Shown piece by piece: positions 42,601-48,600 of a stretch of 64,000 nt of DNA. The position numbers were made by a program. Every line of letters begins with the position of its first letter. The stretch's first letter is position 1. The stretch is taken from assembly GCF_000092825.1 (NCBI RefSeq), contig NC_014168.1:485946-549945 (forward strand), read 5' to 3'. The stretch is from Segniliparus rotundus DSM 44985 (GTDB lineage: Bacteria; Actinomycetota; Actinomycetes; Mycobacteriales; Mycobacteriaceae).

Positions 42601-45600
42601 GCGATGAACGTCTCGATGTCGTTCTGCAGCGCGTCCATGGAGGTGGCCGCGACCCCGGAGAACGTGTAGACGCCGACGATGACGAGCTGGTCCCTGCCCA
42701 AAGACCGCAGAGTGTCGAGCAGATCGGTGTGGAAGAAGGCGCTGATCTTCGATTTCGTGATGAACACGTCAGCGCTCGTTCGCTCCAACGGTGGCACGAT
42801 GGCCCGCTCCGCGTCGTCGTCGGGCATACCTGTGCCATAGAGGTCCAGGAAGAGTCCGCGCTGCTCTGGTGTCATGCCTCCCGGCTGACCGGAGTACAGG
42901 ACGGGGATCCCGCTGGCACGCGCTGTGTCCAGCAAAGACTTGGCGTTGGCCAGCACCGTCTTCATCGGATCCGAGCCGAGTCGATACGGTTTGACGAAAT
43001 AATGCTGCATATCGTGGACGAGCAGAACAGCACGAGAGCGATCCAGGCCCCACGGGGCTAGGGACTTAGGAATCGAAAGCCCGTCGAGCGGATAAGAGAT
43101 CGAGCCCGTCGGGCGCACGTCCGCCCCTGCTTCGCTTCCACCGAACACCCCGGCGAGAGAAGAGGCCGCCAGAGCGGAACCCGCGACGAGCAGCTCACGC
43201 CGACGGAAACCAGACATCCCATTCCTCCTAGAGATCGAGAAGCTGCCAAACCAGCTTACAGACACAGCGCAGGCGCCCCTAGGATTCACCGATATTGATC
43301 ATGGCTCCAGAGCCCCGACACCCCTGAAATTCACCCAGAACCGCCCCTGAAATTCGCAGACCTAATCAAAAGCGGTTTCTTTCTCGTCCTGGGCGGTGAA
43401 GTCCACCCCGTCGGCGTGCGGGCCGAACCAAGTGAGGGCCGCGAGCGAAACGCACGCCGCGCCGACAAGGACCCAGAACGAGACCGGATAACCCCATGCC
43501 GCAGCCATGCCGGTTTGCAGGGTCGCGTTGCACGAGGTGCAGAGATTGCCGAGCTGGTAGGTCACGCCGGGGTAGAAGCCCCGGATGGCGTTGGGGGACA
43601 GCTCGGAGAGATGCGCGGGCACCGCGGCCCAAGCCCCTTGGGTCGTCGCTTGGACGAGGAACATCCCCAAACCGAGCAGCCATGGGTTGTGCGGCACAGT
43701 GAACAGCGGCAGGAGCGGCAGGGTCGTCAGCGAGCCGAGGACGATGACGCCGCGTCGCCCGATCCGGTCGGAGAGCGATCCGAAAAAAACGCCGCCGATG
43801 ATCGCCCCAGCATTCGCGACGATCATGACCCAGTCGGCGACGGCCGAGGACAGCGCGCGGCCCGCGTGCTCGGTCTCCTTCAAAAAGGTCGGGTACAGGT
43901 CTTGGGTGCCGTGGGAGAGCGACGTGAACGCGGTCATGAGCAGGATCAGGTAGCCGAAGCGGCGCAGGACGGCCGGGTCGAAGAACACCGCGCGCACCGA
44001 CGAGCCGTGCGCCCGCATCTTCTCCTGTGTGGACACCCAGACCTCGGACTCTTTGACGAAGGCGCGCACGATGAGGGAGATGAGCGCGGGCAGGATGGAC
44101 AGGCCGAACAGCCAGCGCCAGGAAAGCCCCAGGCAGGAGTGCAAGAACAAATGCGCGACGGAGGCGAAGAGGAAGCCGCTGGCGTAACCGGCCTGCAAGA
44201 TCCCAGAGAAGAAGCCGCGTTTGCCGGGCGGCACCTTCTCCATGGTCAGCGCGGCCCCGATGCCCCATTCCCCGCCCATGCCGATCCCGTAGAGCAGACG
44301 CAGGACCACAAGGACGGCGAAGTTCGGCGCGAAGGCGCCGAGGAACCCCACCGTCGAATAAAAGCACACGTTCACCATCAACGGGACGCGCCTGCCCGCT
44401 TTGTCCGCCCAGATCCCGAACAGGTACGCCCCGAGCGGGCGCATCACCAAGGTGACGGTGATGAGAAAGGTGAGTTGGCGCTTGGAGACATGGAACTCCT
44501 GCCCGATCTCGTTCAACACCAGCGTGAGGATGAAAAAATCGAAGGCGTCCATCGCCCAACCGAGCCACGAGGCGAGGAAGGCGCTGCGTTGGTCGCGGTC
44601 AAGATCGGCCCAAGGGGAAGGCTTGCGCATGTGAGGCAGATTACCTGCCCTGGTTTTCTCGGCGGCGTCTCCCCGCCAAAGCGCATCCGAGCGCACCGGC
44701 CTTAGGAGCCGGGGTGCGCGGCGCGTCCGGCGAGGAGCACCAAGCCGGTCCCCGGATCGAAGATTTCGAAGCAGAAGGCGTGGTCCGCGGCGAAAGAAAT
44801 CGCGGGCGCCGGGGCCGTCGCGCCGCCAGGCCCTGAGACGGGGGGCGGCGGCGCCATCGACACGCCTTGCTCGCCGAACGCCACAGCGGCCTGGCTCGAC
44901 CAGCCGCTCGCCCTGGCTTCGGGCGCGAGGCGGGGAAGGGCGGCCTGGGCGGTTGCTTCTGCGGCTCCGGTCAGGTCGGCAAGCGCGGACCAGCGCGGCA
45001 GGGCAAAGCCCAGCGGTGCGGGCGGGGCGCTCGCCAAGGCGGTGCGGGCCGCGGGCAATATGCCCGAGAGGGAGGCGCGCGGGTCGACGGGGATGACCAG
45101 CCGCATCTCGACGCCGTCGGCGAGCGGGAGCTCTGCGGCCCGCCAACCAGTCCCCGCTGCCGTGCGGGCGAGGACGACGCCGCGCATGGTGGGCGGCTGC
45201 GCCGACGCGCCGCCCGCCGTGGTGAACGGCGCTGGCGAGGTCCATTCAGGCCGGAACGGGAAACGCCACCCCGCCAGCAGTTCGGTCAGATCGGCGAAAT
45301 ACACCCCGTGCTGCGCGCCGAGCCCCGGCATGGGTCCGCTGAAGCGCGCGTTGACCGTGCCCAGAGCCCACCCGTTCACCGCCTCGGCCAGTTTCGGGTC
45401 GCCCCCTCGCGCGAGATAGAGGCCCATGTCGAAGTTTTCGGCGAGCAGGTCGAGGAATTCGGGGGCGACTGCGAGGGACCGGTCCGCGATCAGCGCGGTC
45501 CTGCTGCGCAGAACAGGTGTGCCGTCGGCCCCGGCGTTCGGGACGCTGTCAGGGTCGCCCTGCCACTTTTCGAGTTGGCCGATCATCGCGGCGATCGCAG

Positions 45601-48600
45601 GGTCCTCGCCTGCGCCGTTCGCGTCAGCGATGATCCGTTCGCGGCGAACGAGGGCCCATGGGCTGAACACCGTGTCATGGTCCGGCGCGAGCGCGTCGAG
45701 TTCGTCAAGGGCGAGCTGGGCGCTGCGCCGGGCGAGCGCTGTGACGGCTTCCTGGTGCGCGTCGACGCCGATTTCCGCGAACTTCACTCGCGAGGAAAGC
45801 GCCTCAAGATGCGGTTCCTCCTTGGCGGCTCCGCTCGCGCACCCTGCGAGCACGGCGGCTGCTGCGAAAGCGACAGCTCTCCTCATCGCACCGAGCGTAC
45901 CTGGCGGGCTCAGGAAGGGATGAGCGAGACCTTCACGGACCGCGATCCGTCCCCGACGAGTTCGAAGCCCTTTTCGAAATCCGTCAGCGGGAATTGGTGG
46001 GTGCAAATGTCGTCGAGCGGGAGGCTTTGGGACTCGAGCATGCGGATGGCTGTCGGCCAACAGTTCGGGCCCAAATGCGCGCCGAGGACATCGAGCTCTT
46101 TGTCATCGCTGATGATGGTCCAGTCGACGGCGACCGCGTCCCGGAAAACCCCGTACTCGATGTATTTTCCTTGTTTGCGCAGGAGTTTGAGGCCTTGCGG
46201 CACAGCAGAGGCGTGGCCGGTGCCTTCCAGGTACACGTCCGCGCCGAGCCCCTCGGTGAGTTCGAGGACGACCCCGTTCGGATCGTTCTGCGAGATGTCC
46301 ACCGTGGTGTCCGCGCCGCAACGGGCGGCCAGTTCCAGTTTTTCCGGTTTCATGTCCAACGCCACGATGTGCTGCGGGTTGCGGGCTTTCGCCCCGGCGA
46401 TCATGCCGAGGCCGATAGGCCCGCAGCCCGCCACGACCACCACGTCGTCGAACCGGATATGGGCTCGTTGCACTGCGTGCAGCGAGCAGGCGAGCGGTTC
46501 GCAGAACGCCGCGTGCTCGGGCGCCAGCTCTCCTGAGATCTTGTGCACCAGCGATTTTGCCGGGAAGAGCATGTAGGTGGCCATGGCGCCGTTGTAGCCT
46601 CGGCGGAATCCGTAAATGTCGTGCGGCACGCACATGTGGTAGTTCCCCTTGCGGCAGAAACGGCACTCCCAACAGGGAACGATCTGCTCGGCGGACACCC
46701 GGTCGCCGAGTTTCACCCCCCAGCGCAGGGACGCGTCCTCGTCGATGCGCACGACCCGGCCCACGAACTCGTGGCCGGGGATCACGCCGGTGTGCGCCCA
46801 CGGGGCCCGGCCCTCGTCGCCCCAGAACTTCGCGGCTCCTTGGAAGCATTTGAGGTCGCTTCCGCAGATCCCCACCGCTTCGACCCGGATCAAGGCTTCT
46901 CCGGGGCCGGGCACGGGCACGGGCATTTCCTCGACGCGGTAATCCTGGGGGCCATGGCAGACCACTGCCTGCATGGTCTTCGCGACGGGCTCTTCCAGCA
47001 CGGTCTCAGACAGTTGCGTCACTGCTTCTCCTACGGTGGTCGTTTCCTTCTCCCGCCAGCTGGTGAACAGCGGACTTGCTGGAGCGATACAGCTCGCGCC
47101 ATGTCTCGTGGAGTCGGTCGTAGCGTTCGCGGCGCTCCTCTCGGGGAATGACTTTACAGACGACGTGAGACCAGTCTGTCTCCGGGGTGACAAGCCCCAC
47201 ACCAACTGCCGCGAGGAGTGCGTCGCCATAGCTCGCGCCCGCCGTTTGCTCGGTGATCGCCTGGGGCTGGCCCGTGATGTCGCTGACCGCTTGCGTCCAG
47301 ACCGGGCTCTTGACCCCGCCGCCAATCGCGACGATCCGCCGCACGGGGGCTTCTGCTTCGCCGAAGGCTTCGAGCACGTCCCGGACGCCGAAGGCGATGC
47401 CTTCGTATGCTGCGCGGAACAGATGCCCTCGAGTGTGGTTCATCGTGAGCCCCGCGAACACCCCGCGAGCGTCGTAGTCGAAGATCGGCGTGCGCTCCCC
47501 GGCGAGGTAGGGGAGCGCGAGGAGCCCGTCTGCCCCCGCGGGGACGGATTCGGCCTCTCGGGTGAGGACGTCGAAGTCGGGCCCTCCGGTGACGGACTGC
47601 AGCCAGCTGATAAGACTGCCCGCAGTGGAGGTGCCCGCGGCCAGGGCGAGCGAGCCTGTTTGCACGCCTGCGGTGGTCCAGAGCGCGGGATGGTGGCAGA
47701 AACTGTCGATGACCTCGACGAAAAACATCGTCGAGCCGTACATGACCATGAGGTCGCCCGGGTGGCGCACGCCGACGCTGTGCGCCTCGGCGTAGGCGTC
47801 CACAGTGCCCGCGAGCACCGGGGTGCCGACGGGCAGGGCGGTGGCCTCCGACGCTTCCTGGCGCACATGGCCGACCACTTCGCTCGGCCACGCCAGCTGC
47901 GGCAGCGGCACATGGTCGAGCAGCTCGTCTGCCCATTCGGTGTTCCAAGCGAACTCGCGAGTGAGGTAGAGGGGGTCGCATTGGCTCGCCGTGTGGTGGT
48001 CGGCGATGTATTCGCCGGTGAGTTTCGCGACGATGTATGAGTTCGAGCTGTACCAGCGCCGTGTCCGCGCCCAGACGTCCGGCTCGTGCCTGCGTGCCCA
48101 GGCGAGTTTCGGGCCGACTGCTTGGCTGGAGAGCGCGGAGCCGCACTTCTGCGCGATGGCCTCGGGGCCGAATCGCTCGGCGAGCTCTTGGATCTCGGCG
48201 GTCGCGCGCGCGTCGACGCCGTACAAGATGGCAGGGCGCAGCGGTCGGACTTGCTCGTCGCACAGGAGGAGGCAGGGGCCGATGCCGCTCACGCAGACCC
48301 CCGCGATCCGTGAGCCTGGTGGGGCCGCCTCGACCAGCTCGCGAGTGATCGCGCAAACCCCGTCCCACCAGTCCCGCTCCGCGTCCATTTCTGCCCACCC
48401 GGGCCGGGGCAAGGACATTCGGTGCGGTGAGAGCGCTGTGGAGAGGACTTTTCCGTCGCAGGCGGCGAGAATTCCTTTGCTACTGCCGGTGCCGATGTCG
48501 ACGCCGATGACGAGGTCCATGTCGTTGAGTGTAGCCGAATATTGTCAATATATATGACATGGATCACGTATTCGGGGTGTTCGTCTCCAGACGCTCCTGG

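Follow-up and report, generated by a model that had tools for sequence, protein, structure and literature searches.

Does the serpin-like lipoprotein encoded in Segniliparus rotundus DSM 44985 still trap proteases, or does it put the serpin scaffold to another use? The gene lies within the window, the whole stretch of 64,000 nucleotides that we analysed, at positions 44702-45886 of the minus strand (the strand of all the serpin segments given below), and consists of an open frame of 394 codons plus a stop codon at 44702-44704; the deduced protein begins with MRRAVAFAAAAVLAGCASG. Codon-position GC singled out this frame, and this frame only, among the six (GC3 of 0.83, no stops), and an identical protein is encoded on contigs of four independent SRA runs. 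The first-pass annotation had given the correct coordinates and strand, and all the sequence strings that it quoted are found in the product (LAGC at residues 13-16, FGEQGVSMAPPPPVSGPGGATAPAPAISF at 337-365 and FAADHAFCFEIFDPGTGLVLLAGRAAHP at 365-392). A longer, TTG-initiated ORF reaching position 46060 was rejected because it would run into the Zn-ADH gene that lies upstream and has its stop at 45910.

The N-terminus carries a signal peptide and lipobox (residues 1-16, MRRAVAFAAAAVLAG followed by the cysteine; 45839-45886), as had been noticed at first sight. They match a PS51257-like pattern ending at Cys16 and show the layout of a lipoprotein signal, with an MRR n-region, an AVAFAAAAV h-region and then L13-A14-G15-C16, in which Cys16 is predicted to carry the lipid as the first residue of the mature form. 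M1, R2, R3 and C16 are invariant in the seven orthologues, the lipobox cysteine is also invariant in 17 aligned relatives, and the lipobox pattern is matched by 69 of 90 family members. An N-terminal tether follows (residues 17-40; 45767-45838), with a clade motif, KFAEIGVD, that is conserved in the alignments of both the orthologues and the wider relatives; in the AF2 model, confidence is low at residues 1-23 and helix A begins at residue 41. The serpin is a predicted, membrane-tethered lipoprotein with a conserved lipobox: after export, acylation of the prolipoprotein at Cys16 would leave it attached to the cytoplasmic membrane, on the outer face, through a linker some 25 residues long. It is very improbable that translation starts instead at Val34 (GTG), which would yield a cytoplasmic serpin of 361 aa and no lipoprotein; although automatic gene callers chose this form on four SRA-derived Logan contigs, and the ATG at 45886 has no strong Shine-Dalgarno sequence upstream, residues 1-33 are conserved as protein (E23, H26 and L27 are invariant as well, and dN/dS is about 0.3). 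Likewise, the dN/dS of 0.29-0.33 over codons 1-20 indicates that this stretch is coding, the lipobox cysteine lines up with that of 16 more distant relatives, and both JGI and NCBI annotate the orthologues in the long form.

The proposed serpin identity was borne out along the entire protein. Pfam PF00079 (Serpin; MEROPS I4 fold) matches in two stretches with E=6.7e-13 and 49 bits, over the gathering cutoff of 27, and a precomputed match to the same model exists for 7/7 orthologues. A profile built from the seven orthologues matched 6963 proteins at E<=1e-3, and the alignments run end to end (residues 4-393), well beyond the C-terminal motif. The AF2 model (pLDDT 83, pTM 0.83), which was built on just 33 sequences and has low confidence in the reactive-centre loop (RCL) itself (pLDDT <50 at residues 345-355), retrieved 415 PDB matches with Foldseek, the best ones being all native serpins (E~1e-22), and is nearer to native than to cleaved serpin forms. 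The model thus shows a complete serpin fold, with its helices and with sheets A, B and C, in a native-like conformation in which sheet A has five strands. In the serpin domain (residues 41-394; 44705-45766), two elements of alpha1-antitrypsin are absent, helix C (its residues 69-88) and the helix I region (its residues 307-315), and residues 112-123 form a 12-residue insert. Its C-terminal signature, FAADHAFCFEI (residues 365-375, s1C/s4B; 44762-44794), aligns to the family consensus DRPFxFxI and had been called unmistakable; the motif is present and the serpin identity is real, but it is a near-match. With the PROSITE PS00284 regular expression for the s1C-s4B region, we found no exact match in the serpin, which has two deviations, Ala370 for P/S/T and Cys372 for an aliphatic or aromatic residue (LIVMFY). 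Proline is back at position 370 in four of the seven orthologues.

The hinge and RCL (residues 339-362, EQGVSMAPPPPVSGPGGATAPAPA; 44801-44872), which we compared with 90 relatives, proved to be rich in proline, as first described, with 7 Pro and no Lys or Arg in the 21 residues of the loop. Across the orthologues, the loop has 21-26 residues and 19-33% Pro, with Lys or Arg in none, and is 4-9 residues longer than that of alpha1-antitrypsin, its length varying from one orthologue to another. The inhibitory consensus for P17-P9 is ExGTEAAAA (PMC8233489), and about 80 of the 90 relatives show E-x-G-T-[EV]-A-A-A-[AV]-T, versus E-Q-G-V-S-M-A-P-P-P-P here; the stretch E-Q-G-V-S-M-A-P-P thus deviates from the inhibitory form E-[EKR]-G-[TS]-E-A-A-A-A, with its small residues at P12-P9. 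Residue P12 is Met or Thr in 7/7 clade members versus Ala in 75 of 83 relatives. Four proline codons in a row (residues 346-349, P10-P7; 44840-44851, where the plus strand reads GGGGGGCGGCGG) are restricted to the lineage of this genome: the nearest orthologues have Ala-Ser-Pro-Pro or Ala-Ala-Pro-Pro at the same site, most orthologues keep Ala or Ser at P10-P9, and no fewer than 90% of the relatives have Ala where this protein has residue 346. For comparison, the hinge of human PEDF, which is non-inhibitory, is G-A-G-T-T-P-S-P, with Pro at P10 and P8 (PMC6379291 Table 1). A hinge off the inhibitory consensus on a serpin fold, as seen in this protein, is one of the two marks of the non-inhibitory class that includes PEDF, maspin, ovalbumin and thyroxine-binding globulin, the other being a demonstrated lack of inhibition. 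The last of these has Pro at P8, and its loop still inserts after cleavage. Counting 17 residues from P17 puts P1 at Gly355, in a loop of variable length, and a search of this loop for a Lys, Arg or large hydrophobic P1 candidate found none. From the shutter hydrogen-bond network, which we take to be S53, S56, N186 and H334 of alpha1-antitrypsin, the protein keeps S53 and has Ala, Asp and Ser, respectively, at the other three positions, where relatives have S (73/83), N (57/83) and H or Q (78/83).

Judged from sequence, which by itself is still compatible with inhibition, the inhibitory mechanism has probably been lost. With a probability of roughly 60%, we read the product as a lipid-anchored, secreted, Segniliparus-specific serpin-fold protein that has lost this mechanism and is most likely a non-inhibitory binding or scaffold protein of the envelope. 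The first-pass suggestion of a non-inhibitory or atypical surface-anchored serpin is thereby supported. The protein would descend from a large actinobacterial serpin family, mostly of lipoproteins and mostly canonical and inhibitory-type, and would have lost in Segniliparus the sequence requirements of the suicide-substrate mechanism. Its RCL would be a flexible Pro/Ala/Ser/Thr-rich stretch, and with Met at P12, Pro at P8/P7 (P10-P7 here) and no obvious P1 it would insert into sheet A too slowly to trap a protease, hence our preference for a binding or scaffold role.

A clearly less probable alternative, which we nevertheless take seriously, is that the protein is still an inhibitor with an unusual hinge, aimed at proteases that cleave on the C-terminal side of a small residue (Ala, Val, Ser or Gly) or of proline. 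Its targets could be proteases of the host (neutrophil elastase or proteinase 3) or actinobacterial S1 and S8 proteases, either endogenous or from competitors, and an envelope-anchored serpin would then shield surface proteins. The ancestral family is overwhelmingly inhibitory-type, as its canonical hinges suggest, and the breach residues (W194, T203, K290, E342 and G344 of alpha1-antitrypsin) correspond to W207, T216, R298, E339 and G341, all clade-invariant. In the hinge, the inhibitory-type residues P17 Glu, P15 Gly and P11 Ala are kept, and FGEQGVS is invariant in 7/7 orthologues, indicating that the proximal hinge is under constraint; the Met or Thr at P12 and the prolines, however, sit in the strand that must insert rapidly, and P12 and P10 are the positions where antithrombin loss-of-function mutations classically cluster (PMC10478923). 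Inhibitory human C1-inhibitor and alpha2-antiplasmin also have Val at P14 (PMC6379291 Table 1), but the distance from P17 to P1, critical for trapping (PMC6379291), falls here in a longer and variable loop that offers no evident P1. Similarly, the predicted conformation would be of the native, metastable type, and miropin and other bacterial surface or lipoprotein serpins are functional inhibitors (PMC8233489); against this, three of the four shutter residues are replaced, and a search for a protease gene within about 8 kb of the serpin found none.

This serpin lipoprotein is found only in the genus Segniliparus (order Mycobacteriales) and is highly diverged: in the orthologue profile search, the score falls from 723 bits within the seven-lineage clade to 167 bits for the nearest outside relative. 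The gene is genuine, expressed-looking and under purifying selection, with its ORF intact in seven diverged lineages (59-87% identity, dS about 0.5-0.8). We consider it quite improbable that the gene is a relic in decay, left by a former inhibitor, without present function and drifting towards a pseudogene. The long stem branch of the clade in an NJ tree would fit such decay, as would the absence of helix C, of the helix I region and of many otherwise conserved residues, and an overall dN/dS of 0.33-0.44, roughly double the values of 0.19-0.25 and 0.13-0.15 for the neighbouring MFS and flippase-like genes, respectively. However, dN/dS is well below 1 throughout and drops to 0.15-0.26 in the C-terminal core strands, more than 150 positions are invariant in the orthologue alignment, lipobox included, the breach residues are kept, the AF2 fold is confident, and the position and tight spacing with respect to the neighbours are conserved. 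The excess of the serpin dN/dS over that of the neighbouring genes (0.13-0.25 overall) is also compatible with partial decay.

Other actinobacterial lipoprotein serpins, such as those of Tsukamurella sp. 8F (WP_275482185.1, P0008) and Arthrobacter ginkgonis (WP_345152515.1, P0018), annotated as 'serpin family protein', correspond to prokaryotic serpin groups of Spence et al. 2021. They have in common with the Segniliparus protein the signal peptide, the lipobox cysteine, a short tether, the serpin domain and a family-specific insert ahead of strand s2A, with 25-31% identity from end to end. Most actinobacterial relatives retain the hinge E-K-G-T-V-A-A-A-V-T, helix C, the LGxxxxF...ADFSGI region and the shutter, whereas the Segniliparus clade has lost them all; the hinges of the Tsukamurella protein and of three metagenomic relatives (P0012, P0014 and P0015) are likewise degenerate and Pro-rich. 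The Group U serpins of Streptomyces, also actinobacterial, diverge in breach and shutter and were proposed to be non-inhibitory from sequence alone (Spence et al. 2021, PMC8233489); many of them keep a consensus hinge (PMC8233489), while in Segniliparus it is the breach that is kept and the hinge and shutter that diverge. Structures are available for tengpin (2pee), thermopin (1mtp) and miropin (5ncs), bacterial serpins whose inhibitory role is demonstrated or accepted and whose hinges are rich in Ala. Their sources are Firmicutes, Thermobifida and Bacteroidota, not Mycobacteriales, and they share only 14-19% identity with the Segniliparus serpin. Among non-inhibitory serpins, PEDF (SERPINF1), maspin (SERPINB5), ovalbumin and thyroxine-binding globulin occur in eukaryotes as soluble proteins whose ligands or roles are known. 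The Segniliparus serpin, by contrast, is a bacterial lipoprotein in which the helix I region and helix C are also missing; it shows no specific kinship with them, indicating that the loss of the hinge is convergent.

The gene had been placed just outside an IS21 element and next to an MFS transporter. The transporter (422 aa; 43362-44630, minus strand; Pfam MFS_1 and Sugar_tr) is indeed the next gene downstream, co-directional and 71 nt away, but the IS21 element is not adjacent: its remnant, IstB at 41806-42465, lies about 2.2 kb from the serpin, with the MFS and isochorismatase genes in between. The MFS gene adjoins the serpin in all Segniliparus-type loci, with a gap of 10 nt in S. rugosus and a Segniliparus MAG. 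The closest NCBIfam model to its product is a sialate:H+ symport family, below cutoff, and it resembles metabolite:H+ symporters, unlike drug or lipid efflux pumps. Upstream, also co-directional, a gene codes for a flippase-like membrane protein (48564-49652, minus strand; PF03706/TIGR00374); here, two sugar-metabolism genes (FGGY kinase and Zn-ADH) stand between it and the serpin, while in S. rugosus and the MAG it is directly beside the serpin. The junction of both genes measures 8 nt in locus L001 and is a 4-nt overlap in L002, and the order flippase-like/serpin/MFS is kept in S. rugosus, the MAG and metagenomic contigs. Going by gene order, the serpin may be functionally tied to the MFS and flippase-like genes, and as a binding or scaffold protein it could work together with their products.

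In Mycobacterium tuberculosis, the lipoprotein gene of the LprG-Rv1410c (P55) pair is tightly linked to, and co-directional with, an MFS gene. LprG has another fold, with a known lipid-binding pocket. The Segniliparus serpin and MFS genes may be seen as an analogous lipoprotein-MFS pair in the Mycobacteriales. A more speculative and, in our opinion, doubtful proposal is that in Segniliparus, and perhaps in the Tsukamurella relatives, the serpin scaffold was repurposed as an envelope lipoprotein that partners the flippase-like protein and the MFS transporter. It would be a ligand- or lipid-binding partner, like LprG with the P55 MFS pump or like hormone-carrying serpins. Its Pro/Ala/Ser/Thr-rich loop would be O-mannosylated, like similar segments of mycobacterial lipoproteins (LprG is O-mannosylated; PMC7287972), and would serve not as bait but as a linker that resists proteases or as a conformational switch set off by cleavage.

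If true, such repurposing would make this the first non-inhibitory serpin of a bacterium for which a cellular role is defined. To our knowledge, all bacterial serpins characterised to date are protease inhibitors. The physiological role of prokaryotic serpins has been called enigmatic (PMC8233489). The practical significance of our results is modest: the orthologues already carried the automatic annotation 'serpin family protein', and a lipoprotein anchor is the norm in the family. Segniliparus species colonise the lung opportunistically in cystic fibrosis, so a surface serpin, whether or not it inhibits neutrophil proteases, could bear on the interaction with the host. Genus-wide and selectively maintained despite the loss of its hinge, of helix C, of the helix I region and of most of the shutter, this protein offers a natural test of the limits to reduction of the serpin fold and of alternative roles for serpins in bacteria.

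The serpin gene (window positions 44702-45886, minus strand) encodes a protein of 394 residues that starts MRRAVAFAAAAVLAGCASG and ends AGRAAHPGS. Its reading frame contains zero stops and stands out among the six by its codon-position GC (GC1 0.75, GC2 0.59, GC3 0.83), and all the strings quoted in the first-pass annotation were located in its translation. A longer version with a TTG start, up to 46060, was discarded: it lacks conservation and would run into the 3' end of the Zn-dependent dehydrogenase gene that lies upstream and stops at 45910. The identical serpin, called from Val34 as a protein of 361 aa, occurs on contigs of four independent sequencing runs, indicating that the CCG CCG CCC CCC run is no assembly artefact of the window. 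In these automatic calls (Logan contigs L003-L006; for example, 8001-9086 in L003) the conserved signal peptide and lipobox are cut off. Because residues 1-33 are conserved, with a dN/dS of ca. 0.3, a start at Val34 was rejected and these calls are likely a systematic misannotation of the start site; the same N-terminal conservation makes a cytoplasmic form starting at Val34 extremely improbable. A promoter and terminator scan found no promoters, and terminator-like sites only at background level.

Residues 1-16 comprise MRR, the stretch AVAFAAAAV and LAG-C, and fit a PS51257-type pattern. This substantiates the lipoprotein signal (LAGC) originally proposed, as does the invariance of Cys16, together with Met1, Arg2 and Arg3, in the seven orthologues that form the clade (the window protein and those from S. 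rugosus, a Segniliparus MAG and metagenomic contigs). A lipobox Cys aligns with Cys16 in ten out of ten more distant relatives examined, and 69 of 90 family members contain a lipobox of the PS51257 type. The predicted anchor is therefore well supported, but it is the norm of the family and no peculiarity, and we infer that the serpin is exported and lipid-anchored. The MRR motif (45878-45886, minus strand; residues 1-3), invariant in the seven orthologues, places a twin arginine right before the hydrophobic core, which could direct Tat-dependent export of the pre-folded serpin.

The protein resembles serpins over its full length, and not only in its C-terminal 30 residues. It matched PF00079, the model proposed for checking it, with 49 bits in a Pfam scan (E=6.7e-13; gathering score, 27), and it matched no NCBIfam model. 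A phmmer search against PDB sequences retrieved only serpins, including Serpin-ZX (residues 46-262) and ovalbumin (131-392), and a profile of the seven orthologues matched neuroserpin and conserpin over residues 121-394 (E ca. 1e-8). Using this profile against 1.84 billion representative proteins, we retrieved 6963 matches (E<=1e-3), many of which align over residues 4-393 of proteins of 410-430 aa. AlphaFold2 yielded an unusable model from the seven-orthologue alignment (pLDDT 38) and a model with pLDDT 83.3 and pTM 0.83 from an alignment of 33 sequences; the latter resembles native-state serpins (Foldseek, E ca. 1e-22, TM 0.6-0.7) and shows the complete predicted fold of the family, in a native-like state. 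A chance C-terminal motif was accordingly rejected. The C-terminal signature itself, first described as unmistakable, is rather a near-match, because FAADHAFCFEI deviates at Ala370 and Cys372 from what we take to be the PROSITE PS00284 pattern.

Word-indexed searches retrieved only seven proteins of 59-100% identity, among which the named orthologues, from Segniliparus rugosus and the Segniliparus MAG, were already annotated as "serpin family protein"; likewise, serpin matches in a scan of GTDB genomes were limited to S. rugosus and one Segniliparus MAG. Even with broad profiles, these searches yielded 7, 24 and 16 sequences, limiting alignment depth, and family size was taken from the exhaustive search of representative proteins. 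The nearest relative outside the clade is the lipoprotein serpin of Tsukamurella sp. 8F (P0008, WP_275482185.1), with 167 bits versus 723 bits within the clade, and a rough neighbour-joining tree shows a long stem leading to the clade, beside lipoprotein serpins with a GTVAAAVT hinge. The Segniliparus serpin is a strongly diverged, genus-restricted branch, in the order Mycobacteriales, of a large and mostly actinobacterial family.

A conserved hinge is a recognised hallmark of inhibitory, as opposed to non-inhibitory, serpins. We aligned 90 relatives and read this region from P17 onward; ca. 80 of them contain E-x-G-T-[EV]-A-A-A-[AV]-T, in agreement with the published inhibitory P17-P9 consensus, ExGTEAAAA (PMC8233489). 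The hinge of the clade is instead E-Q-G-V-S-M-A-(A/P)-(A/S/P)-(P/L/Q)-(P/S); at P12, six members have Met and the seventh Thr, versus Ala in 75 of 83 relatives. In antithrombin, the mutations causing reactive-site (type IIa) deficiency are clustered at Ala382 (P12) and Ala384 (P10) (PMC10478923), and PEDF, a non-inhibitory human serpin, has the hinge G-A-G-T-T-P-S-P (PMC6379291). Every clade member has Pro at P8 and/or P7, and only the window protein has it at all of P10, P9, P8 and P7 (residues 346-349), where its nearest orthologues show Ala-Ser-Pro-Pro. In the rest of the reactive-centre loop (residues 342-362), Pro makes up 19-33% and most other residues are Ala, Ser, Thr or Gly; large hydrophobic residues are almost absent, and not a single Lys or Arg occurs in any orthologue. 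Its length among orthologues (21-26 residues) exceeds that of the alpha1-antitrypsin loop by 4-9 residues, and AlphaFold2 confidence drops under 50 across residues 345-355. Non-canonical loops, either Pro/Gly-rich or greatly elongated (e.g. ERGTAPAPAGSAPLPTLPPPPPNAF), were also seen in the Tsukamurella sp. 8F serpin and in the metagenomic relatives P0012, P0014, P0015 and P0017; hinge degeneration may be recurrent, or ancestral within a subgroup of Mycobacteriales.

To the alignment we added alpha1-antitrypsin (sequence identical to PDB 2qug_A), and tabulated ca. 50 of its positions, presumably conserved across serpins, against the clade and 83 relatives. In alpha1-antitrypsin numbering, the clade keeps the breach (W194, T203, K290 as Arg, E342 and G344) and core residues S53, P54, F198, F208, M221, P255, P289, F370, L383, G386 and P391. 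The shutter is changed at S56 (Ala), N186 (Asp) and H334 (Ser), and Y244 (Leu), F147 (Gly/Pro), T165 (Val/Ala), L299 and L303 are replaced although they are conserved in the 83 relatives. Two stretches are missing altogether: positions 69-88, which hold helix C and the loop behind it, and positions 307-315, the region of helix I and of the LGxxxxF motif. Both deletions are specific to Segniliparus, and the regions are present in the Tsukamurella protein. A 12-residue insert (residues 112-123) is shared by the clade and the lipoprotein relatives. At the sequence level, hinge, shutter and loop all deviate from the inhibitory consensus kept by relatives, in line with the early suggestion of a non-inhibitory serpin.

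Proline has no backbone NH, and a strand inserted into the middle of sheet A needs that group to pair with its neighbours. Met at P12 and the prolines at P10-P7 would make the loop insert too slowly to trap a protease, and slow insertion would imply that the Segniliparus serpin is a non-inhibitory envelope protein, a reading to which we assign a probability of roughly 0.6. Its main rival is an inhibitor whose specificity is unusual, being directed at small residues or Pro: Val at P14 is found in the inhibitory C1-inhibitor and alpha2-antiplasmin (PMC6379291), the proximal hinge FGEQGVS is invariant in the clade and most orthologues retain small residues at P11-P9. We consider such an inhibitor rather unlikely. 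Protease genes were absent within ca. 8 kb in the window's locus, and no linked protease was found in three loci of canonical relatives.

Comparison of the window, S. rugosus and MAG genes by the Nei-Gojobori method gave dN/dS values of 0.33-0.44 for the whole serpin gene, 0.15-0.26 for the C-terminal strands and 0.33-0.63 for the hinge and loop. The neighbouring MFS and flippase-like genes showed lower values (0.19-0.25 and 0.13-0.15, respectively), and therefore the serpin is under purifying selection that is looser than on its neighbours. It is a real, conserved gene and no pseudogene, and these values make it very unlikely that the gene is a functionless relic produced by decay.

Gene order was deduced from calls on identical contigs and from Pfam/NCBIfam scans. 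In the serpin's orientation, the locus contains genes for HEM4/Trans_reg_C (-), an AI-2E transporter (-), a flippase-like PF03706/TIGR00374 membrane protein (+), an FGGY sugar kinase (+), the Zn-dependent dehydrogenase (+), the serpin (+), an MFS transporter (+), an isochorismatase-family hydrolase (+), an IS21 IstB remnant (-), a hypothetical protein and then a mycolic-acid cyclopropane-synthase-family methyltransferase (-). The dehydrogenase and MFS genes are separated from the serpin by 23 and 71 nt, respectively. The MFS gene is thus adjacent, as first noted, but the IS21 remnant lies ca. 2.2 kb off. This remnant (41306-42465, plus strand), which has no counterpart at the equivalent place in S. 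rugosus, comprises a short IstA-like fragment without family match (41306-41809, plus strand) followed by an N-terminally truncated IstB helper ATPase (41806-42465, plus strand; NF038214, 206 bits versus a cutoff of 200, matched over profile positions 26-231). Neither S. rugosus nor the MAG has the IS21 piece or the kinase, dehydrogenase and isochorismatase genes; their order is flippase-like/serpin/MFS. In these loci the flippase-like gene and the serpin lie 8 nt apart or overlap by 4 nt, and 10 nt separate the serpin from the MFS gene, a spacing that suggests co-transcription. The kinase (xylulokinase-like, below cutoff) and dehydrogenase genes (45910-48520, minus strand), which separate the serpin from the flippase-like gene, are present in the window lineage and an 85%-identical JGI contig (L007) and absent from the S. 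rugosus (L001) and MAG (L002) loci; it looks as if this pair of genes was inserted, in one lineage, into a cluster that is tight elsewhere.

The isochorismatase-family hydrolase (42486-43217, minus strand), 3' of the MFS gene and absent at the S. rugosus position, starts MSGFRRRELLVAGSALAASSLAG, a stretch resembling a twin-arginine (Tat) signal for export, which would be unusual in a normally cytoplasmic family. In the intergenic stretch 44631-44701 (minus strand), the 10 nt before the MFS start, together with the GGCAGGTAA that precedes them, correspond to the 3' end of the S. rugosus and MAG serpin genes, stop codon included (proteins ending in PGR). The window-lineage serpin ends ca. 60 nt earlier with another tail (HPGS), and its 3' end seems to have been remodelled, leaving the ancestral stop as a relic. 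Elsewhere, there were no Rfam matches, the window's only tRNA (Ser-CGA, 28381-28468, minus strand) is 16 kb away and an EF-G-family GTPase of 702 aa is encoded at 36379-38487 (plus strand). The methyltransferase (40054-40989, plus strand; PF02353, E=3.5e-92) and the homologue matches fit a mycolate producer of the order Mycobacteriales; the window has a GC content of 67.3%.

The serpin-MFS linkage recalls the tight lipoprotein-MFS pairing of LprG-Rv1410c in M. tuberculosis, although the window MFS transporter is closer to metabolite:H+ symporters than to efflux pumps. The loop is also similar in composition to the O-mannosylated, Pro/Ala/Ser/Thr-rich segments of M. tuberculosis lipoproteins and secreted proteins, such as LpqR (TTTPSGPVPPVSEAAR), Apa, LprF and LprG (PMC7287972). 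From composition and gene order, it is conceivable, if unlikely, that the serpin-fold lipoprotein, glycosylated and binding a ligand, might be a partner of the neighbouring membrane transporters, or serve them as a switch that cleavage triggers. Published work has already noted prokaryotic serpins anchored in the membrane and, in Streptomyces, a clade that may be non-inhibitory (PMC8233489), and a literature search for Segniliparus and serpin found no mention of Segniliparus serpins. Of moderate appeal for serpin specialists and limited appeal beyond, what is new here is the coexistence of a degenerate hinge, an elongated Pro-rich loop, an altered shutter and the loss of two helices in a lipoprotein that is selectively maintained.
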